Shown: positions 2,609 to 15,946, numbered from the stretch's first letter. The stretch is DNA of 64,000 nt from an uncultured Chloroflexia bacterium (GCA_963819655.1 CAWFXA010000002.1:1376001-1440000); one strand, 5' to 3'. The notes: a model not told the origin generated them from the sequence alone. Made by a program: numbers and translations.

Positions 2609-2761
2609 TCCGGCGCCCTGAGCGCGAGCCTGAACCGAACGCCTGGCGGCGTACGAAGAGAGTCGCCGGCCCGGTCGGCCGCGGTCCGGCTGAGCGCCCG
2701 ACCGGCACGATGCTGGCACGTCTCGAACGACTCAGCGTTGCCGAGCCCCTGAGGGCGCGAC

Positions 2762-3295
2762 CTAACCTTCCCACTCGTCGACTTTGGGGCGGGTCCGCAG
2801 GTCGACGAGCTCCGACACCCAGTCGCGAAGCCGGAGGAGATGCTCGCCGTAATGTTCGGCGCCGGCCTTTCGGATCCACTGGTTCGCCGCCTCGTCGGGT
2901 CCGCGCAGGCCGGACCACGCCTCGAGCATCCAGGCCCTGGCTGCGTTGGCGTCAGCCCAAACACTCTCCCAGGGCTCGGCCTTCGTGGCGGCGAGGATCG
3001 CAGCGTTCCGTCCCTCGACGTCGATCTCGTGAGGCACGTATGAACGGGCAGCGATGTCGAGGAGCTGGGTCCGTGCCTCGGCCATCCACGCCCCGAGATG
3101 GGCGACCAGGTCCTTCACGCTCCAGTCAGGGTCACGGTAGTAACCCGGTGCGAGCCGCTCGTCGTCGCTGAGCAAGTCCACGAATGCGGTGATCGCCTTC
3201 CATCGCGAATGCGCGAGCTCGACCTCCGCGGCATAGGCTTCCTCGAGGCGCCACGGCAAGTTCTGTGCCGTCGGTTCATTGAGTTCGTTCAACAT
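2762..3295 (-). CDS. DinB/ClbS-DfsB-like (maleylpyruvate isomerase N-terminal-like) protein
   Basis: WSVKDLVAHLGAW and HYGEH metal-binding motifs; AGGAGG upstream. Confidence 0.75.
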   Translation of the reverse strand: MLNELNEPTAQNLPWRLEEAYAAEVELAHSRWKAITAFVDLLSDDERLAPGYYRDPDWSVKDLVAHLGAWMAEARTQLLDIAARSYVPHEIDVEGRNAAILAATKAEPWESVWADANAARAWMLEAWSGLRGPDEAANQWIRKAGAEHYGEHLLRLRDWVSELVDLRTRPKVDEWEG

Positions 3296-3313
3296 CGGAA
3301 ACCTCCCCTCCTC

Positions 3314-3748
3314 CTAGCGGTTGATCACTGCGCTCGTCCACGCATCGACGGTGTCCAGTGCCGCTGCCAGATCGGCGTCGAGCCCGTATCGACGGGCGAC
3401 ATCGGCCGGTGACGGGTAGCTGACCTTCGTCTGGTAGCCGTCCTCCCAGACGATCACTCGCAGCGGCAAGTCGAGTGCGGCCAGCGGCGCGGCGTCGATC
3501 ACCGGCGTCGTGCTCGACGGGCTGCCGACGATGAACAGCTTCGTGTCGCGCAAGGCGAGCCCGATGCGCCGTGCCTCGTCGCTGTGGTCGATCACCGCGA
3601 AGACCTTCAGTCCTCGCGCTGCCACGACTGCGGAGAGCCGAGCCACCGTCTCGGCCATCGACCACGGACTCACCTTCGTGACGACGATCTGGTCATCGCC
3701 GCTGCGCGGATCCGACCCGTGGCGGTGCGCTGATGGTTCGCTCGGCAT
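3314..3748 (-). CDS. DUF302 domain protein
   Basis: ETVARL...GLKVFAVIDHS...AALDLPLRVIVWED. ATG at 3748 follows an AGGAG RBS; the longer ORF start is unlikely. Confidence 0.8.
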   Translation of the reverse strand: MPSEPSAHRHGSDPRSGDDQIVVTKVSPWSMAETVARLSAVVAARGLKVFAVIDHSDEARRIGLALRDTKLFIVGSPSSTTPVIDAAPLAALDLPLRVIVWEDGYQTKVSYPSPADVARRYGLDADLAAALDTVDAWTSAVINR

Positions 3749-3914
3749 CGGGACTCCTGGATCGGATGGAGATCGCCATCGTTTCGCGCCGGCCGATCCG
3801 CCGTCTTGCGTCAGATGACTCCAAACGCAGCGGCGCAAGGTCTTGCCCCGCCACGTGCCGGCGGTTGACAATGCGGTCGGACAGAGCAAGGTGCCCACGC
3901 TCGCGTACCGCCCC

Positions 3915-6877
3915 ATGATCGACCCCCATTCCCCCCTGAACGACGAACGGCAAGTCGACCGTCGCCGGCCCGGCAACCTGGTCGGGCGCGAGACGGAGAT
4001 GGACCGCATCCAGGCGTTCCTCGCCACGGCCCGGACCGATGGCGGCGCCCTGCTGGTCACCGGCGAGCCAGGGATCGGAAAGACCGAGCTCCTCGATGCC
4101 GCCGCGGAGGTCGCTGCGGCGGCAGACACCCGGATCCTCCATGCGGCCGGCGTCGAGTTCGAGGCCGGGATGAGCTTCTCCGGTCTGAACCAGGTCCTAC
4201 TCCCGCTCCTGGACGTGTTGCCGCAGCTTCCGGCCGTCCATCGAGACGCGCTCAACGTCGCACTCGGCTTCGGCGAGGGCGTCGCCCCCGAGCCGGCTCG
4301 TCGTGTCGAATGCGGCGCTCTTGCTGCTGCGCGATGGCAGCGACCGATCGACCGTTGCTCGTCATCCTCGACGACCTGCCCTGGCTGGACCGAGCGAGCG
4401 CCGGCGTGCTGAGCTTCGTCGCGCGGCGCCTCGAGGGCAGCCAGGTCGGCGCTGATCGGGGCGTCGCGGACCGGAGAGGAAGACTTCTTCGATCACGGCG
4501 GCTTGCCCGAGCTCGAGGTCGAGCCGCTCGTTGACGGCTCGTCACGGCAACTGCTCCAGACACGCGCTTCGCCGACCTCGTGCCTCCCGTTCGCGAGCGC
4601 ATCCTTGAGGAGGCACAGGGGAACCCGCTCGCGCTGTTGGAGCTTCCCCTTGCGCTCGGGCCGTCCATCCGTGCGTCCGCCGACGGCGCTGCCGTCGACG
4701 CTCCCGCTCGGTCGACGGCTCCAGGCGCTGTTCGGATCGCGGATCACCGGGCCTCCCGCCCCGGACACGGCAGCTCCTGCTGCTCATGGCGCTCGATGGC
4801 ACCGGCGACGTGCGCGTTCTGGAGGTGGGATCGGCCCCGAACGCCGGCTATCGCGATCTCGCCGCGGCAGAGCAGGCACGACTCGCCTACCTGGACGAGG
4901 CGACGCACCGGCTCGCGTTCCGCCACCCGCTCATCCGCTCGGCCGTCGTCGACCTCTCGCAGGCCGAGGAACGTCGAACCGCGCATCGCGCCCTGGCCGA
5001 CGTGTGGGCGGACCAGCCAGACCGCCGGGCGTGGCATCTCGCCGAGGCGACCGTCGAGCCGGACGAGTCGGTGGCGGCGCAGCTCGAGGCGTACGGCGGC
5101 GCGGATCCTCGCCCGAGGTGACGCCGTCGGTTGCGTCAAGGCGCTGACTCGATCGGCTGATCTCAGTCCACGGAGCGCGGATCGTCATCGGCGACTGGCT
5201 GCGGCCGCCTACATCGGCGCCGACGTGGCCGGTGATCTCGGCAACGCCTCGCAGGTGCTCGCAGAGCTCCGGCGCGGGGACACCGAGGTCGAGGGATCCC
5301 TGCAAGCGGCCATCGCCGCGTCTGCGTTCCTGCTGTAGGCCGACGGGGATATCGCGACCGCCCATCGTCTGCTGGTCGGTGCGACTCGAGAGCCGTCAGG
5401 GCGCCCTGACGCCCGCGATCCCGTCCTTGCCGAGGCGCTCCACTCGCTGATGATGGTGTGCTCGCTACGGCGGGGAGGAGGACCTTTGGCGGTCGTTCGA
5501 GGATGCGATGGCGCGCAGCCGATGGGATCCCCATCGCCCTCGATCTGAACAGCAAGATCTTCGCGGATCCCGCGCGTGCGGGGGCTACGGCGCTCGAGGC
5601 ACTCGACTCGGCGATCGCCGCGCTCGCTGACGAGTCGGACCCGGCCCAGATCATCCGGATCGGGATGTCGGCCTCCTACGTCGACCGGCTCGAAGGATGT
5701 CGAGACGCCCTGTGGCGCGTCGTCCGCGACGCGCGTGAAGGCGGCGCGGTCGCGTCGGGCATCACCGCCATGATCGAGCTAGCGTTGACGACCTCTAGGC
5801 GGGTCGCTGGGATGAGGCCGAGCGACTGGTTGACGAAGCGATCCAGGTCTGCGAGGCCCACGGATACGATGCCTTGATATGGCCGTGCCGGTTCTGTCCA
5901 AGCCATTATCGCGGCTGGACGGGGCGACGCTACAACGGGCCGCGGAGCTATCCGGACGAGCTCGTCCAGTGGGCCGGACCACGGGGGATCCGTGCAGGTC
6001 AATCGTGGGCCTGGCAGGTGCGTGGGCTGGCCGCGCTCGGGCAGAGGTGATTTCGAGGAGGCCTACCAGCAGGCGAGCAGAATCAGCCCACCTGGGCCTT
6101 CTCGCGCCGCACACGCCGCATGCCCTCAGGGTGCTCATGGACCTGGTCGAGACGGCAGTTCGCACCGGTCGTGATGCCGAGGCGGCGGCGCACGTCGCCG
6201 CGATGCGAGAGGCAAACCTCGCCGGATTGTCGTCGCGCCTCGCGCTCGTGGTCGGCGGATCGACCGCGATGGCGGCACCCGATGACACGGCGTTGGAGCT
6301 GTTCCAGGTGACCCTGGCGCTCCCGGGGATCGAGCGGTGGCAGTTCGACCACGCTCGAGTGCGGCTTGCCTACGGCGAACGCCTGCGGCGCAGCCGGGCG
6401 ATGATCGAGGCACGGGAACAGCTCAACGCCGCGCTCGCGATCTTCGAGCGCCTCGGCGCCCGACCCTGGGTGGACCGCACGACCGCCGAGCTGCGCGCGA
6501 CGGGACAGACCAAGCCGCGTGCCGGTGACAACGTCCTGGACCGGCTCACGCCCCAGGAGTTCGAGATCGTGACCCTCGCGGCGTCGGGCATGACCAACAA
6601 GCAGATCGCGGAACGGCTGTTCCTGTCGCATCGGACCGTCGGCGGTCACCTCCACCGAGCCTTCCCCAAGCTCGGTGTCTCGACCCGAGCGGCCCTCCGC
6701 GATGCGCTGGAGTCCCTCCCGCACGGAGCAACACCCGCTCAACTACCGATCCTCCCCGGTCGGCGCCCGCTAGTCGAATCGTCCGCGCGAGGCCGAATCG
6801 GGTCATTTGACCGAAGAGCGCCCTCCGACGTTGCCCCGACCATCGACCTACTCGCGGTAGCAACAGGAAGGACGTGA
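3915..6877 (+). pseudogene. Large AAA-ATPase/LuxR-HTH transcriptional regulator, broken by many frameshifts and an in-frame stop
   Basis: N-terminal LVGRETE...GEPGIGKT Walker A, LDDLPWLD Walker B, GNPLALLEL and AFRHPLIRSAV lie in successive frames. C-terminal LTPQEFEIVTLAASGMTNKQIAERLFLSHRTV is a LuxR HTH. TAG at 5336-5338. Confidence 0.85.
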
Positions 6878-6881
6878 CCTC

Positions 6882-7679
6882 ATGAAGATCGTCGTCATCG
6901 GCGGCACCGGGCTGATCGGCTCGAAGGTCGTCGCGGTGCTCACCGAGCACGGCCACGAGGCCGTCCCGGCCTCACCACGCCTCGGCATCAACACGATCAC
7001 CGGCGAAGGACTCGCCGAGGCCCTCGACGGCGCATCGGTCGTGGTCGATGTGTCGAACTCACCGAATTTCGAGTACGCGACCGCGCTCGACTTCTTCGCG
7101 ACCTCGACCCAGCACCTGCTGATGGCCGAGGCGGCTGCGGGGGTCGGGCATCACGTCGCGTTGTCGGTCGTCGGGACGAAGGCGCTGTCCGAGGGAGGCG
7201 ACCTCACGAAGACGACCGCCGGGTACTTCCTGGCGAAGCTCGTCGAGGAGGCGCTGATCCGGACGTCGTCGATCCCGTACTCGATCGTCCACGCGACCCA
7301 GTTCTTCGAGTTCATCAAGAGCATCGCCGACAGCGCCACCGACGGCAGCACGGTCCGGTTGCCGCCGGTCGCGTTCCAGCCGATGGCGGCCGCCGACGTC
7401 GCCAAGGCCGTCGGCCGGGTCGCGGACGGGTCGCCGGTCAACGGCATCGTCGAGGTCGGCGGTCCGGAGACGTTCCCGTTCGACGAGGCCGTCCGGCGTG
7501 CCCTCGCGGCGACGAACGACCCGCGGACGGTCACCGCCGACCCGTCTGCGACGTACTTCGGCATCGCCGTGGACGAGCGCTCGCTCGTGCCCGGGGACGG
7601 GGCGATGGTCGGCGAGATCCGTCTCGACGACTGGCTCCGCGAGAACGCCGCCGTTCCGGCGGCGGCCGCCGCCAGGTAG
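6882..7679 (+). CDS. NAD(P)-binding SDR/NmrA-like oxidoreductase
   Basis: MKIVVIGGTGLIGS Rossmann motif; ATQFFEF motif. Confidence 0.9.
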   Translation: MKIVVIGGTGLIGSKVVAVLTEHGHEAVPASPRLGINTITGEGLAEALDGASVVVDVSNSPNFEYATALDFFATSTQHLLMAEAAAGVGHHVALSVVGTKALSEGGDLTKTTAGYFLAKLVEEALIRTSSIPYSIVHATQFFEFIKSIADSATDGSTVRLPPVAFQPMAAADVAKAVGRVADGSPVNGIVEVGGPETFPFDEAVRRALAATNDPRTVTADPSATYFGIAVDERSLVPGDGAMVGEIRLDDWLRENAAVPAAAAAR

Positions 7680-7745
7680 GCGTGGGCCGGTCGGTCTTCT
7701 GGCACCAGCCAGTGAACCAAGGAAGAACGAGAAAGGACGTACAAC

Positions 7746-8626
7746 ATGAGCACCACCACTGAGCGGGCGGGAGCGCCCGAGGCGGCCGATCGATCACCGA
7801 ACGCGAGCGCGAGCAGGTCGAGCGTGCGAACGCGACCACGGCGACGCCGGTGGTCTTCATCCACGGGCTGTGGCTGTTGCCCTCGAGCTGGGACAAATGG
7901 GTCGCGCTCTTCGAGGAGGCCGGGTACGTCGCGCTGACGCCAGACTGGCCCGATGATCCCGAAACGGTTGAGGAAGCCCGGGCGGAGCCCGAGGTCCTCG
8001 CCAAGAAGACCCTGAAGCAGGTCGCCGATCACACGACCGAGGTCATCTCTGGCCTGAAGAAGAAGCCAGTGATCATGGGGCACTCCACTGGCGGTCTGCT
8101 CGCGGAGATGCTCGCGGGGCAGGGCCTCTCGGCGGTCACCGTGGCGATCGATCCCGGAGTCTTCCGCGGCGTCCTGCCACTGCCGCTGTCGGTGCTGAGG
8201 TCCGCAGGCCCGTTCCTGATCAACCCGCGCAATCGCGGCCGCGCGCTCACGCTCACGTTCGACCAGTTCCGATACGCCTGGACGAACAACCTGGACGAGG
8301 ACGAGGCGATGGAGCTCTACGACAAGTTCCATGTCGCCGCCTCGGGGATATCGCTCGCGCAGATGGGCAATGCGAACCTCAACCCATGGACCGAAGCGAA
8401 GGTGGACACGAAGAACCCGGACCGCGGCCCCTTGCTGATCATCGAGGGCGAGAAGGACCACACGGTGCCGTGGGCGATCGCGGACGCTGCCTACAAGCGG
8501 CAGAAGCGCAACCCCGGCGTGACGGAGATCGTGAAGATCCCGAACCGAGGCCACTCCCTCACGATCGACCACGGCTGGCGCGAGGTCGCCCAGACCGCGC
8601 TCGATTTCGTCAAGAGGTTCGCGTAG
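7746..8626 (+). CDS. Alpha/beta hydrolase (one frameshift near 7795)
   Basis: PVVFIHGLW, nucleophile GHSTGG, D and H of triad (EKDHTVP, RGHSL). ATG 7746 with AAGGA RBS lies in another frame. Confidence 0.85.
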
Positions 8627-8712
8627 CGATCGCTCCGTCGACCCTCAAGGAGCGGGCCACGCAACGACCGTAGGCTAGCGCTAGCCGGCTCAGGCCAGAG
8701 GTCGAGCCAGTT

Positions 8713-8754
8713 GACGGAACCAGCGAGGTCGATGCCTCGCTGGTTCCGTCGTTT
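8713..8754 (+). terminator. Strong hairpin, probable terminator after the hydrolase
   Basis: Perfect 16-bp stem GACGGAACCAGCGAGG/CCTCGCTGGTTCCGTC followed by GTTT. Confidence 0.6.
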
Positions 8755-8828
8755 CGAACGGATCGCAGGAAGATGACCCTCGCCCGCAGCCGAGAGATCG
8801 GGACGTCGAAGAACCGAAGGGAGCGCGA

Positions 8829-9068
8829 ATGATGCCCGACTCCACGGAGCCCGTTAGCTTCGAGACGCAGGTCAAGCCGATGTTCCGCGAGCGTGACCGA
8901 GAATCGATGGAGTTTGCCTTCGACCTCTGGTCCCGCGATGAGGTCAGCGAACACGCAGACGCCATCCTCGCCCGCCTCAAGGCCGGCACGATGCCTTGCG
9001 ATGGCGCTTGGCCTCCGGCCCAGGTCGCCCTCTTCGAGCGTTGGGTCGCAAGCGGCAAGCCGCGCTGA
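8829..9068 (+). CDS. Small conserved hypothetical protein (cytochrome-c-like outline without CxxCH)
   Basis: AGGGAG RBS; VSFETQVKPMF...GTMPCDGAWP...LFERWV. Confidence 0.7.
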   Translation: MMPDSTEPVSFETQVKPMFRERDRESMEFAFDLWSRDEVSEHADAILARLKAGTMPCDGAWPPAQVALFERWVASGKPR

Positions 9069-9173
9069 CCATTCGCGAGATACGCGAACCCCGGCCTGAT
9101 GGTTCTCTTCGGACAAGAGATCGGGCCATCGAAGGTCCTTGGCGGCTCACCCCGCGGAGGTTGCTCGACTCCC

Positions 9174-9758
9174 TCATCGTCCCGCGTCGGGGCTGCACGG
9201 ACGTTGGTAGCGGTCCTCGTCCCGCTGCAGCTCGAGGAAGTGGTTGCCACCTCCCAGCGTGCCGAGCTGCGACAGGGCGCGGTCGAACCAGACGTCCTTG
9301 ACCGACTCGGGCTTCACGATGCCCATCGCCTCCAGCGCGACCTCGCGGTCGACCGGGGTCTTGAGCCCGTGGAAACCGGTCGGGACGCCCCGATCGATGT
9401 CGGCCAGGACCGCGTCGAGCACTGCCGACGGCAGGTCCTCGACGGTCAGGTCGGTCTCGACGAGGGCGACACCGCAGCCGATGTCGACGCCGATCGCGTA
9501 CGGCACGACGGCCTTGTCGGCGAACAGCACGCCACCGATCGGCATGCCGTAGCCGGCATGACCGTCGGGCATGAGCGCGACGTGGTCGATCGCGAACGGC
9601 AGGTTCGACACGTTGGTCGCCTGCTCGAGCGTGCGCGGGTCGAGCTCGCCGGCCCACGACTTGATCGGCACGCGGCCGGGCTTGGTGACGATGGGCAGCG
9701 CGGTGGAGGTCGCCTTGGCGGCGGTCGTTGACGTCTCTGAGGTCTCGATGGTCGACAT
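9174..9758 (-). pseudogene. rtcB: RtcB family RNA ligase, N-terminal half only
   Basis: ALMPDGHAGYGMPIGGV, AIGVDIGCG, QLGTLGGGNHFLELQ. Homology stops after RDED (about 9213) and I find no HSGSRG continuation in any frame. GGAGG RBS before ATG 9758. Confidence 0.9.
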
Positions 9759-9789
9759 GATCGCTGGACCTCCGGCCAGCATTGTGAGG

Positions 9790-9864
9790 TGGGGTGGTCG
9801 TCGGAGTCGAACCGACGTCTGCTGGCTCCACATGCCACGGCCTTCTGTCAGGACGACGACCACC
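9790..9864 (-). tRNA. Degenerate tRNA-His(GUG)-like RNA
   Basis: 8-bp acceptor GGTGGTCG/CGACCACC plus CCA (His-type G-1), T8, T-loop GGTTCGACTCC, anticodon arm TGGC-AT-GTG-GA-GCCA. D-arm is non-canonical and the T-stem/acceptor junction is 1 nt short. Confidence 0.65.
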
Positions 9865-9880
9865 ACGGGGAGCAGGGGAC

Positions 9881-9915
9881 AAAACGAAACCGGCTCCTCG
9901 GATGGAGGAGCCGGT
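9881..9915 (-). terminator. Intrinsic terminator/attenuator upstream of tRNA-like RNA and rtcB
   Basis: 11-bp stem ACCGGCTCCTC/GAGGAGCCGGT followed by TTCGTTTT on the minus strand. Confidence 0.75.
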
Positions 9916-9942
9916 CGGAAGGCGGCAGGACGCAGCCGTGCG

Positions 9943-10071
9943 CTACCCCTGTCGATGCCTCCGATCGGTCTCCAGCCGATGACCGCGTGACTCGCGGACA
10001 CGACGGACAAGCCGAACGCCCAGCGGGCGTTTCGGTCGATCGCGTCGGTATCGCGGTTGGCGCTTGGTCAT
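9943..10071 (-). CDS. Putative 42-aa leader peptide (15 Arg, 2 His)
   Basis: GAGG then ATG 10071, MTKRQPRYRRDRPKRPLGVRLVRRVRESRGHRLETDRRHRQG, stop 27 nt before the terminator stem. Confidence 0.4.
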   Translation of the reverse strand: MTKRQPRYRRDRPKRPLGVRLVRRVRESRGHRLETDRRHRQG

Positions 10072-10343
10072 CACTGGCCTCGTTCTGTCATGGACGTCCC
10101 ATGCCGGCGGCCGCAGCGGCACGGAGGCGGGAGGGATACACGCCCAGCTGTCAGTGAACCTTGCAGAGCGCGACGAACGTCGGATCGCGGGGTCGAGTCC
10201 GCGGTCCCCTTTCCGTGCTGCTACCATCTCGCTCGCTGCGAACCTGACGCGTGGAGCGCGACCTCGGTCCCCCTCCTGGGCGTTAGGCGAACCAGCCCAT
10301 CGACACCGACCTATGGGGTCGCTCGCGAAGGAGATGTTTCGTC

Positions 10344-12287
10344 ATGTTTCGAGTCGAGAACGCCGACTTCATCGCGGATAAGCTCGCTGCAGAACTACTC
10401 CCATACCAGGAGTACCGCGAGGCTTACAAGAATTCCGAGGAAGCCATCCAGCGTCGGATGGGCCTCGACGGATCCACGTCCAATGGCCGAGTCGAGTTTG
10501 ACGTGGATTGGGCCCTCTTCACAGCCACAGGGAACTGGTATCTCTCGTGCTCGGACAACGGTGATGGCATGTCTCGAGTCGAGTTGACGCGATACATGAC
10601 CACATTGGCCGTGCGCGGCGCCGGCAACAACCAGGGCCTCACAGGGAACCAGGGAATGGGCCTGAAGATCAGCGGTCCTACCCGCCACAAGCGAGGCGTC
10701 CTCATCCGAACGATGAGGGACGGGGAACGCTGGATGCTCCAGATCGGTTGGAACGGTGAGAATTATGCCCTGATACCGCTCGGTCCCGAGGGAGAGGTCG
10801 TTGTCCCGGTGCCCGAGAGCATGTTCCCTGGCTTCACTCGCGACCAGGCTTCGGGGACGGTCGTTACCTTCCTCGGCAATTCGGATGACGACAACACCTT
10901 CAGTCCGAACGACCGCCCGCGTGGATGGATGTTCAAGTACTTAAACCAACGATTTCACCGCTTGTCGGATGGGAGTGTGGACGTATTTGTCCGTGTGCCA
11001 ACGGGCGACGAGGACGAGTGGCCGCGTTCGCCGGAGGATGCCTCCGAGCGTCAGCGCGGCGCCGGCGGACGCACGTTCAATCTCTCGCGTGTGAAGGGAA
11101 CTGCAAATGTCTGGGATGACGCGGCGGACCGACAGGACGGTGGAAGCAATTCAGATAGTGAACATCGTGGATTTGTAGACCTGTCCGGCGACGCTGCAGC
11201 TGACATACCCGCCGCGAGGCTCCACTGGTGGGTGCTCCCCGCCGGCGCAGGGTCTGACGTGTCGTCCAGAACCTCGAGTGGTGGCAGTCTGGCGGTGCTG
11301 TTCCAGAACGAGCTACATGACTGGCGAACGTCCGGTCAAGCGAACCCATTCTTCGCGCGCCTCGGAGTCCTGTACGGAAAGACCCGGATCGCGTTCATTC
11401 TTGAGCCGCTTGGTGGCACCATCGCCTCCGATTTCGCGCGCGCTCACGTCCTTGTTGGCGGCCGACCTGTGTTCGAGAGCGACGCCTGGCTCACATGGTC
11501 GGAGCAGTTCCGGGCCGCCATGCCTGAAGAAATTCGCCGAACGATGGCGGAGGAGCAGGCACGTATCCAGGAGGAGGATCCTGAACGCGCCCGTCGGATC
11601 CGCGATCGACTTAAGGACGTCTTGCAGTTGCTGCGGCCACGCCGCTTTCGACGCGACGACCGCGGGAATGCTCGTGCAACGGGTCCCGTTGTGACGGGCG
11701 CGGGCGCAGGTTCTGGGTCCGTTACCGAACGCGCGGGGACTGGCCGTCGGCGTGGTACACAAGCACGAGGAATCGGCGCCGTGCTCAGTCAGCTCGACGG
11801 CCAGGACAGCGAGGTCGCCAGCGAGGTGTACTCCATGCTTCACCTCGACCCACGGTGGGTGACTGAGGCGGAGGCGGAGGACTTTCCGATTGTCAACGGC
11901 AATGGAATCGGTTTGAAGGATCGCGCTGCCGCAGTGGCTGGTGAGGACGGGGCAACCGCGGGGATCCTGCTACTCAACCGTGATTTTCGCGGATACCAAG
12001 CGATTCTCGCCGCCGTCAACGATTGGGCCAATCCTGATGGCGATGAATCAAAGGCGCACGTCATCGAGGACGTCGCGCGCGAGTGGATCGAGCAGAAGAT
12101 GGTCGAAGCCGTCTCGGGACTGCGGCAGCTTGAGAATGGATCGACTTGGTTGCCAGGCAATTACGATGATGCGTTGAGCCCCATGGCTTTGACAGCCGTC
12201 TTCATGGCCGACCGCTACCACACCCTTCGGGAGGTGCGTCGCCAGGCAGGCTCGTTCCGCGCCCCAGCGACATCGGCTCCTGCGTAG
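10344..12287 (+). CDS. GHKL (MORC/HSP90-like) ATPase with uncharacterised C-terminal region
   Basis: REAYKNSEEA, SDNGDGM, GNQGMGLK and GTVVTF GHKL motifs; AAGGAG RBS; codon usage less GC-biased than flanks. Confidence 0.8.
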   Translation: MFRVENADFIADKLAAELLPYQEYREAYKNSEEAIQRRMGLDGSTSNGRVEFDVDWALFTATGNWYLSCSDNGDGMSRVELTRYMTTLAVRGAGNNQGLTGNQGMGLKISGPTRHKRGVLIRTMRDGERWMLQIGWNGENYALIPLGPEGEVVVPVPESMFPGFTRDQASGTVVTFLGNSDDDNTFSPNDRPRGWMFKYLNQRFHRLSDGSVDVFVRVPTGDEDEWPRSPEDASERQRGAGGRTFNLSRVKGTANVWDDAADRQDGGSNSDSEHRGFVDLSGDAAADIPAARLHWWVLPAGAGSDVSSRTSSGGSLAVLFQNELHDWRTSGQANPFFARLGVLYGKTRIAFILEPLGGTIASDFARAHVLVGGRPVFESDAWLTWSEQFRAAMPEEIRRTMAEEQARIQEEDPERARRIRDRLKDVLQLLRPRRFRRDDRGNARATGPVVTGAGAGSGSVTERAGTGRRRGTQARGIGAVLSQLDGQDSEVASEVYSMLHLDPRWVTEAEAEDFPIVNGNGIGLKDRAAAVAGEDGATAGILLLNRDFRGYQAILAAVNDWANPDGDESKAHVIEDVAREWIEQKMVEAVSGLRQLENGSTWLPGNYDDALSPMALTAVFMADRYHTLREVRRQAGSFRAPATSAPA

Positions 12288-12297
12288 AAGGAGTGCC

Positions 12298-12777
12298 CTA
12301 GGAAGTCCTAGGCACAGGTCCGGCATCGACGGCCTGCATAACCTCTCGGACCGCTTCCTTTGGGTCCGTGTGCTCCCAGAATCTAAGAATGGTCCACCCA
12401 TGAGCCCGCAATTTGTTTTCGGTGTCTATGTCTCGACGGCGATTGGCTTCGATCTTGGCTTGCCACCATTTCGAATTCGCCTTGGGAGATGACCCATGCT
12501 CTGGACATCCGTGCCAGAAGCATCCGTCGATAGAGATCGCAACCCTGCTGGACATGATCACGAAGTCCAGCCGACGTCGGGGTACGAAATCGAGGGTGAC
12601 CTGAGCCTCGACGGCTACGTCAGCACTGCTGAGCACTGACGCCCAAGCGATCTCCGGAGCAGTCCCACTCCGTCGCACAGCGAGCATCCTTGAGCGAGCA
12701 GCCTCCGACGACGCGCGTGGTCGCGCGTCTCGCTGAGGTCGTCGCCGCGGCTGCCGCGCGGACAGCCCTCTGGCCAT
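12298..12777 (-). CDS. vsr: Very short patch repair endonuclease (annotated ORF is fused to the upstream gene)
   Basis: RSRMLAVRRSGTAPE...DGCFWHGCPEH...KWWQAKIEANRRRD...GWTILRFWEH. Own ATG at 12777. Confidence 0.85.
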   Translation of the reverse strand: MARGLSARQPRRRPQRDARPRASSEAARSRMLAVRRSGTAPEIAWASVLSSADVAVEAQVTLDFVPRRRLDFVIMSSRVAISIDGCFWHGCPEHGSSPKANSKWWQAKIEANRRRDIDTENKLRAHGWTILRFWEHTDPKEAVREVMQAVDAGPVPRTS

Positions 12778-14739
12778 CAGAGCCCGCTCAAGAATGTTGG
12801 CGATCCGGGACAGACGGTCGTTGGCCGCAATGTAGTCGGCGTAACTCTCCTGAGACTCCTGGATTAGGGCGTCGTAGGTAATCCAGGAGGCGCCAATCGT
12901 TCGGAGGACATCGGTCACGGTTTTGAGATCGGCTCCCGTTGGAGGGCCACCTACAACAGCGATCAGCCGGATTTCTTGTGGCTCATTGGGGTATTTCTCT
13001 CGAAGCACCTTCGCAAGTGCCGAGCCATATTTGTTGAGTTGTTCGGAGAGGTCCCAGACCGTCGTTTTCGTGCCATAGCGCTTCAATTCGATCACGATGT
13101 TCGTCCCGGCCGCAGTGCGATATCGGATATCAATTCGGCCGGCGCGCTCGTCGGGGCTGAGCCTGTCCGTGACCTTTCTGAACTCCCTCATGACGCTCTG
13201 CTCTATACGAGCATTCGTGGATGCGCGCTCCCAAGAAGGATGTAACAGCCACAAGTGATCGAACAAGAAAGCCTGGAGCGCCCTTTCCTTGGCGTTGGCG
13301 TCGACTAAACCAGCGAAGCTCTCAATCACACCAAGTCGGCCGCGAACAATTTGGTGGTACTCAGCGGCCTCCAAGTCATCGATGGACAGAACCAGGCCTC
13401 GCAGAGCGTCGACCTCGAGGCGGTCGCCCAATTCGCCAGTCCGGATCAGGAGCTTCTGGAACTTGAGCTTTTCAAATCCCAGGATTCCGTACCTGTAGAG
13501 CTCGCGCCGCGCGTCGTCGTCCTGCTTGGGAAATGAGCCAATACGGCCGAACAAGTCTTTCGCGAAGCTCTGACTCCCCGCATCGAGCGTTTCGTACCAC
13601 TCAGTAACAACAGGATGCTCGAGAGCCTTGCCGAGAGCATCCTCCTTTCGCCATTGACCCCAAGCGTTCTCCACGCGCCTAAGGAGATCCGTCCTGACGA
13701 AGTTCCGCAGCGCCTGGTACCGAGGGTCGGTCTCTTTCAGGCGTTGTCTGTCGCTGGTCGCTATGTCGGGCTGGCCGTCCGAATCGACGAAGTCGGCTCG
13801 TATCTCGCCCATGAGATACTTGGTGTAAATGCCGCCCGCTCGGATGTCGGACAGGATGTCCTCCTGGACTAGCTTTCCCCAAGCAAGAATGGTCACGGCC
13901 GTGTTCTCGTCGTCGACACCACGTTGCTCGTCCAGGGTTCCTATCCAGCCCGTTACCTCAAGTCCAGTTGTGGGGTCAATGATTCCCGATATGCGCTCAG
14001 CCTTCTTGGCATTTGTGCACAGCCTTTCGTACGTGTCATCGACACGCCCGATTGACCAGAGGTACTCAACCTTAGGGAAGTAATCACGATCTCCGACACC
14101 GATTGCGCGCCCGTTGATTTGGACCTCGAATCGGTTTGACGGCCCAATGATGCTGAACCGCCTTGCCAGGCGGCGGCGAAGCGCAACCTCGGTAGCCGCA
14201 CCAAGGTTCAACCGCAGCTGCCGCAGGCGAAGCTCGGTACCCCTCTCCAGCCCAATTGAAGTAGGCGCGATCGGGGCAGGTCGGTAGGAGGTTTGACCCG
14301 CGGCAATTTGCGATTCGACGTCGGCCGTCCGGAGAATCAAACCCGCTCTGGCAATTCGAAATGACCTCCCGCGGCCGGAGCGCTTTGCGCTGCGGACCTC
14401 GATCTCGTTGGCGATCGCGAAGAGCGACAGCTTGCCAATACCTTTGCGACCCATGACATGCCGCTGGTACTTGGGCGTCAGCGCACCCTGGTTCGCCCTC
14501 CGGCGGTAACCGATCATCAGAAAACGGTCGTTCAGATCGGCCTCGGACATCCCATGTCCGTCATCCGTAATCGTGATGGATTGACGTGCCGTGTCGAGAA
14601 CAATGGTCACGAGAGTGGCATCGGCATCCCAGGCATTTGCGACCACCTCCGCCAAAACTGCGGGGATGTTGCTGTAGAGGTTCAGTCCAAGGTGCTCAAG
14701 CACATTCAGGCTTAGCCGCATCTCGTACGGCGAAATCAC
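12776..14739 (-). CDS. GHKL-ATPase-fused restriction endonuclease, BbrUII/HgiDII-like family
   Basis: LSLNVLEHLGLNLYSNIPAVLAEVVANAWDADA, DDGHGM, MGRKGIGKLSLF; C-terminal GRIDI...VVIELKR PD-(D/E)XK motif; adjacent to a C5 MTase. Confidence 0.8.
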
Positions 14740-15909
14740 GCGTCCGCGCCTTGGTTGAGGGCCACGAGGAGGGAGGTGGTCAGTGCCTCCGAAAGGAAGG
14801 GTGGAACCGCATTGCCAATGAGCCTAGAAAGAGAAGTGCGGTGCTCGACCTGTGAAAACGTCACAAAATCAGGGATGCACTGGAGTCGGGCGGCCTCATG
14901 CGGCGTCAAGGTTCTCGGCGCCTCGGGGTGGACATATCGACCTTGACCCATTGAGCCGAAGCCGGACGTGACGGTCTGCGCAGGGGCGGCCCATTCCAAC
15001 CGGCCGTACATACTTTTGTATGAGTGACTGCTGCGGTGGCAAGCGGGACGCAGTCGGTTAGGAAGATCCAATTCTCCGCTTAGGTCAAGCCACCGGATCC
15101 GCCGACGATTTGTATGAGAGACAGTGGCGGGTTCGTCCCTCCTTTCCGTTGAGGGAATTCCGGCCAGATCGCCGATTGCCCACCGCACCGTTCGTCGAAT
15201 CGTCACATTCCCTATCGAATCGAGCACCTTTTGTGGATCGATAGTTTCGACCCGCGAAGCCAACAACACGTGTCGACGCCGTGACTGGGGAACACCAACA
15301 TCGAGAAGTCGGATGACACGCTCTGCGACGGTGTATCCACTGCCCTTGAGAATTTGCGTCGTCCTGCCAATCGAATCGTGTGCATCGTGTACCACGGCCG
15401 GCACATTCTCGATGATGACAGCCCGGGGTTTGAGCACTAGCGCTGCTCGCGCCATTGCGACGTAGAGGCCGTTTCGTGGGTCATCACGTCGGGTGTGATT
15501 GTTTAGATCGGAGTGACCCTGACACGGTGGACCGCCGACGAGGAGATCCACTCGCCCGACGCGGTCTGCGAGCGCACGCTCGGTTTGTGTTTGCGGCTCC
15601 GTGCCTTGGCCAGGGAAGATTTCCTGAACAGACGTCTTCAGGACGGTGGCCGAGGGGAAGACGGATTTATAGACAGCGACAGCGTCTGGATCCAGGTCAA
15701 CTGCGAGGCGAGTATCAATGCCGGTTGCCATTCGGTTTGCTGCGCGGGCGACTCCAAGCGACAAGCCACCGCAACCACAGAAGAGGTCTACGAGGGCGAG
15801 CCGTTGAATGCCCTCGGTAAAGTCAGGAAGTCGATTTCACGAAGAAAGAGCCTGTCGAGTCGACAGGCTCTTCCTGATCAAACGGCAGCTCGAGCGCCGC
15901 TTCCATCAT
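14736..15909 (-). CDS. dcm: DNA (cytosine-5) methyltransferase, 5' end frameshifted near 15836
   Basis: Motif I LVDLFCGCGG lies upstream of the called TTG. GGPPCQGHS, IENVP, GVPQSRRR, RTLTPHEAARLQ and IGNAVPP are present. Removing one A from GTGAAAT restores starts at 15840/15909. Confidence 0.9.
15846..15872. promoter_or_regulatory. Perfect 27-nt palindrome containing GTCGAC
   Basis: AAGAGCCTGTCGA-G-TCGACAGGCTCTT. On the minus strand the stem runs into TTTCTTC. Confidence 0.55.
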
Positions 15910-15946
15910 CCCTTGGAGAGCATAGCCGCTGGTCGTGCACAGCCGA

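Follow-up and report, generated by a model that had tools for sequence, protein, structure and literature searches.

The rtcB locus

The window considered here is a stretch of 64,000 nucleotides (nt) from the genome of an uncultured Chloroflexia bacterium (GCA_963819655.1, CAWFXA010000002.1:1376001-1440000; the genome is referred to as G000). The element of interest is a 75-nt cloverleaf, read on the minus strand from 9864 to 9790, which lies immediately upstream of the start of rtcB, the gene for an RNA ligase. It is a degenerate paralog of tRNA-His(GUG), and intact tRNA-His genes occupy the same position in soil-dwelling relatives. The gene order in these relatives is nrdJ (class II ribonucleotide reductase), a conserved leader, the tRNA-His where it is present, and rtcB. 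In G000, the leader is found at 10085-9881 on the minus strand. The individual features are listed in Table 1.

A first-pass annotation of the window had placed the cloverleaf upstream of rtcB, ending 31 nt before the ATG. This distance matches the spacer between the cloverleaf and the ATG at 9758-9756. The position upstream of rtcB is thus correct, but what follows is only an N-terminal fragment of the gene. Similarity to intact RtcB stops at 9216/9215, and the frame continues into unrelated DNA up to a stop at 9174. With the intact 442-aa RtcB open reading frame (ORF) of the related genome G114 as the query, tblastn aligns RtcB residues 12-212 at 9815-9216, including an in-frame read-through of the upstream spacer. 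A second, displaced fragment is found about 6.5 kb away within the window, and residues 333-351 are matched by tblastn outside the window, at C2 1370928-1370872. The break in rtcB is a multi-kilobase rearrangement, and no second rtcB was found in the 3.49-Mb assembly.

Structure of the tRNA-like element

The element retains a number of the features of a histidine tRNA. Its acceptor stem, GGUGGUCG paired with CGACCACC, has 8 bp including G-1:C73 (G-1 and GUGGUCG on one strand, CGACCAC and C73 on the other) and is followed by an encoded CCA. The T-loop is UUCGACU and the anticodon loop is AUGUGGA, with A32, U33, the GUG anticodon, G37 and A38. Both elements of histidine identity, the G-1:C73 pair and the GUG anticodon, are present. 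Other parts of the molecule are damaged. The anticodon stem, UGGC/GCCA, forms four of its five pairs, with a G.G mismatch at 27:43, while the D-stem forms three of four, 11:24 being U.C. The D-loop, UGACAGAA, lacks A14 and G18G19. The junction between the T stem and the acceptor (65/66) is one base short, reading CCGA-CGACC where relatives have CCGACCGACC, so that one pair is lost, either in the T stem or in the acceptor. All the features that the first-pass annotation had described, namely the length, the 8-bp acceptor, CCA, T-loop, GUG with G37, A32, the 4-bp anticodon stem and the D-loop without A14 and GG, are indeed in the sequence. Judged as a complete cloverleaf, with a 7-bp acceptor, a 4-bp D stem and 5-bp anticodon and T stems, the window copy falls short, whereas the copies of relatives do not. 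Among the universal tertiary nucleotides (U8, A14, G18G19, A21, T54-Psi55-C56 and A58), U8 and the T-loop are kept, but the set is incomplete.

Standard finders do not recognize the element, a check that the first-pass annotation had proposed. ARAGORN reports no tRNA gene in the whole window, and Rfam has no match in the window at its gathering thresholds. In E-value mode, the Rfam tRNA model RF00005 gives the element 19.4 bits (E 0.21) against a threshold of 29. Folded by itself, the strand is only slightly more stable than shuffled versions (z -1.93, with 3 of 200 shuffles equally stable), and its preferred fold is an 11-bp extended terminal helix.

A covariance model made solely from the five intact copies of relatives, searched over 346,512 bases, gives a very different result. 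The window copy scores 51.8 bits against it, with an E-value of 2.4e-10, and its position, after the terminator of the leader and before the ribosome-binding site of rtcB, is the homologous one. Because of this score and this position, a chance cloverleaf is ruled out. The first-pass annotation had made its case depend on a cloverleaf conserved upstream of orthologous rtcB genes and had suggested a covariance model built from such sequences; the cloverleaf is conserved in relatives, and the model finds the window copy.

Intact copies in relatives

The closest relatives of the RtcB encoded here belong to the Chloroflexota, Candidatus Limnocylindria. The RtcB N-terminus is present in 5 of 61 related genomes, and the upstream DNA in 12 of 131 genomes of the genus, including G000; the match in G100 is a 34-nt terminator-like stretch only. 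ARAGORN calls a tRNA-His(gtg) directly upstream of rtcB at 4 of 11 loci of the genus (G006, G114, G026 and G131). At the 49 loci of RtcB relatives on genome contigs it calls four tRNA-His genes and no other tRNA. After de-duplication a more distant carrier is found, locus L038, whose RtcB is 68% identical, and a called tRNA-His is present at 5 of 18 genome loci. Metagenome contigs scanned by the terminator pattern yielded 18 stretches, two of which (L075 and L086) have a tRNA, called as tRNA-His by ARAGORN in both cases; the rtcB ribosome-binding motif follows within 190 nt downstream in 10 of the 18. Outside the Limnocylindria, no tRNA lies within 1.5 kb of any RtcB locus that was fetched.

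The six distinct copies called by ARAGORN are well-formed tRNAs. In an alignment fitted to the model, 98.5% of 132 pair cells are formed and 7 of 22 pairs are changed on both sides. Their covariation score is reached by none of 500 shuffles, and slid controls pair in 32-52% of cells. A MAFFT alignment of five copies gives 97.7% paired, with six pairs compensated. The intact copies have 5-bp anticodon and T stems, and the Rfam tRNA model gives them 53.5-63.2 bits. U8, A14, G18G19, A21, G53, the T-loop UUCGA, C61, the GUG anticodon and G-1 are invariant in five intact copies, and G-1:C73 is found in five of the six distinct ones, the exception being G114, which has A73. Between lineages, the rtcB-linked copies are only 71-80% alike, and loop positions 32, 37 and 38 differ. 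The intact copies are under selection as tRNAs.

The rtcB-linked tRNA begins 3-17 nt past the U-tract of the terminator and lies 31-80 nt before the rtcB start. Since it sits between terminator and rtcB with no space for a promoter of its own, co-expression with rtcB, which the first-pass annotation had proposed, is plausible.

The rtcB-linked gene is a second, fast-evolving copy of tRNA-His beside the housekeeping gene. Of the 50 tRNA genes that ARAGORN finds in G000, only one is a tRNA-His, located on the minus strand at C2 1451830-1451905; it scores 68 bits with the Rfam tRNA model. Separate housekeeping genes, 91-100% identical to this one, are found in G006, G114, G026, G131, G020, G036, G128 and G129. 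The D-arm of the rtcB-linked copies in G114 (L013 1682-1756) and L038 (1396-1470), UAGCUCAA.GGCAGAGC, resembles that of the housekeeping tRNA-His, while the other rtcB-linked copies have D-arms of the GUCGUCCAACGGCAGG type. The RtcB of G114 nonetheless groups with those of G000 and G129. This suggests either that the housekeeping gene has served as the donor in a gene conversion or that two alleles of old date are involved. ARAGORN also reports a 95-nt "tRNA-???" with a two-base anticodon in G000 (C2 1366936-1367030, equivalent to L074 4936-5030); it has no Rfam match at E of 0.05 or below and is probably a false positive.

The housekeeping gene lies about 66 kb from the window element on the same strand, an arrangement that would also be seen if the element were an attachment-site (att) remnant of the housekeeping tRNA-His and the two bounded a genomic island. 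In five other genomes of the genus (G009, G090, G111, G002 and G013), the 3' part of the housekeeping tRNA-His occurs a second time, 1-3 kb away from the complete gene or at another place. Such partial copies are the usual footprint of elements integrated at tRNA-His, so that this gene does serve as an integration site there. In G000, however, the similarity between element and housekeeping gene is loose and runs over the full length, the T-arms differ, and the exact shared run at the 3' end is only about 8 nt. The element is full-length, not the housekeeping 3' half that the first-pass annotation had named as a possible source, and it is found in the same leader-rtcB slot in genomes whose housekeeping gene is on another contig. 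An att remnant or island boundary is ruled out on these grounds, the likelihood left to it being negligible.

Decay and loss of the accessory tRNA

Beyond the intact copies and the housekeeping gene, the covariance model finds three degenerate copies, those of the window, G128 and G129. The G128 copy (70.5 bits) has deletions in the D-arm and a 6-nt anticodon loop, while the G129 copy (47.6 bits) is truncated on its 5' side by the edge of the contig and has another sequence in place of the GUG loop. In G036 and G151 the gene is deleted and about 8 nt of its 3' end remain. At the 18 distinct genome loci with the conserved terminator, the tRNA is intact in five, degenerate in three and missing from ten. 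These states are scattered within the clades of an RtcB N-terminal tree, in which 13 of 27 inner branches are not resolved. The accessory tRNA is dispensable and fast-evolving, and on several occasions it has decayed or been lost by deletion.

The window copy no longer has the contacts between D-loop and T-loop at the elbow, it is short of one stem pair, and the rtcB beside it lies in pieces. What remains is thus a relic, an acceptor/T-arm minihelix that could at best still be processed, and it is most likely inert.

The first-pass annotation had instead inferred a functional RNA, a tRNA mimic, a decoy or a sensor acting in cis; the odd D-arm would then be an adaptation and not damage. The element does keep its acceptor with G-1:C73, the CCA, the T-loop and the GUG loop, the upstream leader is 90% identical to those of relatives with its small open reading frame (sORF) still open, and A32 is shared with the copy in L086. 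Since ARAGORN recognizes the L086 copy, which has the UGGC/GCCA stem as well, A32 is not a lesion. The deviating features, on the other hand, occur in none of the six distinct intact copies. The D-loop without A14 and GG and the weak stems are lesions of the window copy, the intact relatives being canonical. The other, unrelated lesions in G128 and G129 and the clean deletions in G036 and G151 form a pattern of neutral decay. With the partner gene destroyed, and with no rsr and no YrlA match found in the genome, a working mimic is improbable, and a sensor or decoy is unlikely in this organism. At the level of the family, the first-pass interpretation fares better, as rtcB is accompanied by a tRNA gene that probably serves under stress; it does not hold for the window copy, a relic whose neighbouring rtcB is destroyed.

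Errors of sequencing or assembly could in principle mimic such decay in an organism whose accessory tRNA-His is intact. The lesion at the junction is a one-base deletion in a run of CC, and the rtcB of several relatives is frameshifted in their assemblies. The D-loop, in contrast, is set apart from all intact copies by several substitutions and not by insertions or deletions, and the break in rtcB is kilobases in size, which makes errors a very unlikely explanation of the lesions. The best DNA read runs contain at most 0.41 of the sampled words, and run X1 represents relatives only.

The rtcB gene itself is irregular in several relatives. It is spread over two or three frames in assemblies L045/L014 (G151), L009 (G026), L044, L055 and L046, with in-frame stops as well in G151 and L044; these may be true pseudogenes or indel errors of assembly. 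Extra fragments of the RtcB C-terminus lie near rtcB, or some kilobases from it, in G026, G129, the G128 contig and G000 (L009 5836-5970, L024 2069-2317, L057 1501-1908 and G000 C2 1370872-1370928), a hint that the 3' end of rtcB may have been rearranged or partially duplicated repeatedly.

The conserved leader

The leader upstream of the tRNA, which the first-pass annotation had not described, was aligned across 15 loci. Its 3' end is a strong intrinsic terminator, in which 98.8% of cells are paired in the 15 sequences and whose stability ranges from -21.4 to -23.3 kcal/mol. An sORF precedes the terminator. All 14 leaders that have a 5' end possess a Shine-Dalgarno (SD) sequence, a start codon and a frame of 39-43 codons, and 24-27 nt separate the stop (TAG in 11, TAA in two and TGA in one) from the terminator arm that follows. 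The sORF of G000 has two indels, +1 and -1, which shift the middle 20 codons but cancel out, so that the frame stays open. Diversity at the three codon positions is 12.3, 13.5 and 9.5. Since there is no excess of variability at position 3, the peptide sequence is not conserved, though the frame is. A real small protein as the product is rejected on the same ground and because no Pfam or NCBIfam family matches at E of 1 or below, save one at 0.083. Sensing of His codons is rejected as well. The sORF peptides have single His codons only, and the one that is conserved is 6 nt from the antiterminator strand, a spacing that appears too close for a sensor of the trp type.

When the leaders are cut before the 3' arm of the terminator, the 5' arm pairs with GGAG.CCGAUCGGAGG at the 3' end of the sORF in 15 of 15 sequences; the partner of this strand is CCUUCCGACCGGCUCC. 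This alternative helix is the proposed antiterminator. Ninety-one per cent of its 201 cells pair, compared with 32-69% when the strands are slid. It is backed by conserved complementarity and not by covariation.

No other copy of the leader that would indicate a regulon was found in the genome, the next nhmmer match having an E-value of 0.032, and the leader matches no Rfam family at gathering thresholds. Below threshold, Rfam places only nhaA-II over the leader on the opposite strand (24.3 bits against 70.4) and ilvB-OMG over it in L018 (24.5 bits against 95.9). A T-box-like leader is rejected because Rfam finds no T-box and no UGGG box that could pair with a CCCA 3' end is seen by eye. A promoter consensus scan of 9600-10400 gave no sites in the window and none in shuffled sequences, so that the scan has little power here. 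In two metagenome contigs, L083 (234-827) and L080, a full leader (163 bits with nhmmer in L083) is located before an ORF that is not rtcB; the first 110 aa of this ORF have no Pfam match, no counterpart in the 131 genomes of the genus and no lead in the Atlas.

The distance between nrdJ and the leader is much greater in G000 than in G006 because of a 5.8-kb block which encodes two HATPase_c_3 proteins and a DNA methylase (Table 1) and looks like a restriction or defence islet.

Table 1. Features of the rtcB locus in G000, in window coordinates
Feature	Position	Strand	Basis or remark
Displaced rtcB fragment, residues 354-378, with HRAGR for the HGAGR motif	2677..2751	minus	tblastn, blastn
About 6.5 kb between the rtcB pieces: DUF302, AAA_16/LuxR-type regulator, NmrA-like gene, alpha/beta hydrolase	2752..9215		
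rtcB N-terminal fragment	9216..9758	minus	Pfam RtcB 2.3e-34, profile positions 1-167 of 426
31-nt spacer with the conserved rtcB ribosome-binding motif GCUGGCCGGAGGUCCAGC; SD GGAGG at 9773-9769	9759..9789	minus	Sequence and alignment
Degenerate tRNA-His(GUG) paralog (pseudogene)	9790..9864	minus, read 9864 to 9790	Sequence and homologous intact copies
Intrinsic terminator, 12-bp stem GACCGGCUCCUC/GAGGAGCCGGUU (9888-9916), U-rich tail 9881-9887	9881..9916	minus	
Proposed antiterminator 3' strand, overlapping the terminator 5' arm	9907..9922	minus	
Proposed antiterminator 5' strand GGAGACCGAUCGGAGG, inside the last third of the sORF	9958..9973	minus	
Leader sORF, 42 codons and TAG; SD GAGG at 10081-10078	9943..10071	minus	Leader alignment
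Leader hairpins P1 (10035-10012) and P2 (9999-9981), inside the sORF	9981..10035	minus	Compensatory changes in P1
5.8-kb block between nrdJ and leader	10126..15946		Absent from G006, where the nrdJ-leader distance is 122 nt
647-aa HATPase_c_3 protein	10344-12287	plus	
813-aa HATPase_c_3 protein with a C-terminal Vsr-like endonuclease	12298-14739	minus	
C-5 cytosine DNA methylase	14736-15764	minus	
nrdJ	19454-15947		

A model for the cassette

Taken together, the window element is probably the decaying accessory tRNA-His(GUG) of an rtcB cassette of the Limnocylindria, in which the leader would act as an attenuator that co-induces the intact tRNA and RtcB. The leader itself most likely works by ribosome-dependent attenuation. 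On translating the sORF to its stop, a ribosome would cover the 5' strand of the antiterminator and keep this helix open, so that the terminator forms and the cassette is off. With slow or blocked translation, the antiterminator could form before the polymerase has reached the 3' arm of the terminator, and read-through would follow. Because the tRNA is located past the U-tract, it would be made on read-through only, together with the rtcB mRNA. The read-through transcript would thus yield the spare tRNA-His and the ligase at the same time, the tRNA being freed by RNase P and by 3' trimming to its encoded CCA. Such a response to damage of the translation apparatus could be described as "replace and repair". 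We infer the direction of regulation, co-transcription, and the charging and use of the tRNA from the arrangement and conservation of these parts.

The place of the tRNA, precisely in the gap that separates the terminator from the rtcB ribosome-binding site, would also suit a simpler function, in which it is mainly a processing signal whose maturation by RNase P and 3' trimming detaches the leader from the rtcB mRNA, decoding being irrelevant. Its fast evolution and the other small hairpins that tRNA-less loci have in the same spacer fit such a signal. A pure RNase P substrate has no need of an anticodon arm, however, and the invariant GUG anticodon, the invariant universal tertiary nucleotides and G-1:C73 in five of the six intact copies point to a usable tRNA-His rather than a cleavage signal only. 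A signal needed for processing is also difficult to reconcile with the ten genome loci that have no tRNA, and this function is unlikely to be the main one.

RNA-library runs provide weak evidence that the cassette is expressed in relatives. Six runs contain 0.11-0.16 of the sampled words, and contigs of runs X15, X16 and X17 cover the leader, the tRNA and the 5' end of rtcB of relatives. In X15, a 451-nt contig covers leader and rtcB together with the diverged segment between them, which has the length of a tRNA, while contigs of 75 and 78 nt in X17 match the tRNA alone. Two contigs join the leader to the spacer with no tRNA between them.

Several observations weigh against the proposed cassette and its attenuator. 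The evidence for expression consists of these RNA-library contigs, in which DNA may be present and which prove neither transcription nor RNA ends. In G128 and G129, a degenerate tRNA stands beside an rtcB in a single frame, so that the tRNA decays independently of rtcB and the two genes are not decaying together. The tRNA is absent from 10 of the 18 genome loci that have the cassette, which means that control of rtcB does not need it. The rtcB frameshifts of relatives and the single-base lesion of the window copy could be sequencing errors. The 14 sORF peptides have no run or enrichment of regulatory codons, and open frames as long as the sORF are common in G+C-rich DNA. The covariation of the antiterminator is weak: both sides have changed in only 2 of 14 pairs, and its percentage paired is equalled or exceeded by 115 of 500 shuffles. 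At equilibrium, the full leader adopts the terminator fold in 14 of 15 sequences, so that read-through would need kinetic help or the help of a ribosome.

Comparison with known systems

The trp and his leaders and the antibiotic-sensing leaders of resistance genes are leader-peptide (ribosome-dependent) transcription attenuators. The leader described here resembles them in having an sORF with an SD sequence, an intrinsic terminator, and a predicted alternative helix, one strand of which also belongs to the terminator and which overlaps the sORF. It differs in its long sORF of 39-43 codons, in the lack of any run of regulatory codons, and in the genes that it would control, which are those of an RNA ligase and a tRNA rather than a biosynthetic or resistance operon.

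YrlA, a Y RNA, has no anticodon arm and binds Ro60, and Chen et al. in 2014 are said to have described it as tRNA-like. A Y RNA, the analogy drawn by the first-pass annotation, is rejected for the window element, which has a full anticodon arm; there is no match to RF02553 (YrlA) in the genome. The annotation had seen no rsr gene at the locus, and no relative of the G114 Rsr was found in G000. Among 131 genomes of the genus, one (G114) has rsr together with a YrlA-like RNA, as a separate insert by the cassette that is divergent from the rtcB leader. In this insert (L072 7566-9362), rsr encodes TROVE and vWA_Ro60 domains, and the YrlA-like RNA scores 44 bits against 69 (E 4e-7). The Salmonella RNA repair operon, rsr-Y RNA-rtcBA, is reported to be controlled through RtcR/CARF by damaged tRNA (PMC7790460, PMC10159003). 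The operon resembles the cassette in having a tRNA-shaped RNA next to rtcB and in responding, in Salmonella, to tRNA damage. It is unlike the cassette in that the latter has a complete tRNA-His with an anticodon and no evident control by RtcR or sigma-54.

The nearest analogue is the trn L-array of Anabaena, a set of redundant tRNA genes, ordinarily silent, which impaired translation induces and which are co-regulated with rtcB (PMC8421152). Stress tRNA genes of cyanobacteria adjoin rtcB in some species, and topping up the tRNA pool and soaking up tRNA nucleases are proposed as roles of the array (PMC8421152). The array has up to 43 tRNAs, direct repeats in the promoter as the control and a history of horizontal spread (PMC8421152). 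The likeness is a redundant tRNA linked to rtcB. The cassette differs in having a single tRNA-His, placed in the 5' untranslated region of rtcB behind a terminator/antiterminator leader, with an induction that we infer from this arrangement. No description of a tRNA-His gene upstream of a bacterial rtcB was found in the main texts searched, nor was an rtcB attenuator; the top-ranked papers for the latter do not contain the term rtcB.

Phages encode tRNAs whose altered anticodon loops let them escape the anticodon nucleases of the host. The rtcB-linked tRNA-His is similar in being redundant, with a fixed anticodon and positions 32, 37 and 38 that vary between lineages. Unlike the phage tRNAs, it is chromosomal and linked to a repair ligase, and no nuclease directed at tRNA-His was identified here. 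It is conceivable, if rather doubtful, that the Limnocylindria control rtcB without RtcR, by a leader-peptide attenuator that senses how well translation itself is running, that a single read-through transcript supplies both the ligase and the fast-evolving spare tRNA-His, and that this tRNA escapes a tRNA-His nuclease by means of the variable flanks at 32, 37 and 38.

Implications

If the proposal for the Limnocylindria is true, the cassette would be a "repair plus replace" module encoded in cis, of which the window holds the fossil. The leader, an sORF-coupled terminator/antiterminator that appears to be dedicated to rtcB in 15 aligned leaders from 15 loci, is a concrete and testable candidate for the RtcB switch in bacteria that have neither RtcR nor sigma-54 control. 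For annotation, the case illustrates that tRNA finders overlook decaying paralogs, and that such relics can lead to functional cassettes in relatives; the product of value here is the cassette of the relatives, composed of a putative leader-peptide attenuator, an accessory tRNA-His and rtcB. The link between stress tRNA arrays and rtcB in cyanobacteria would be extended beyond that phylum, with control of a different kind. A single accessory tRNA, in this family, can be hard-wired to an RNA-repair ligase, and is found there in intact, decayed and deleted states.

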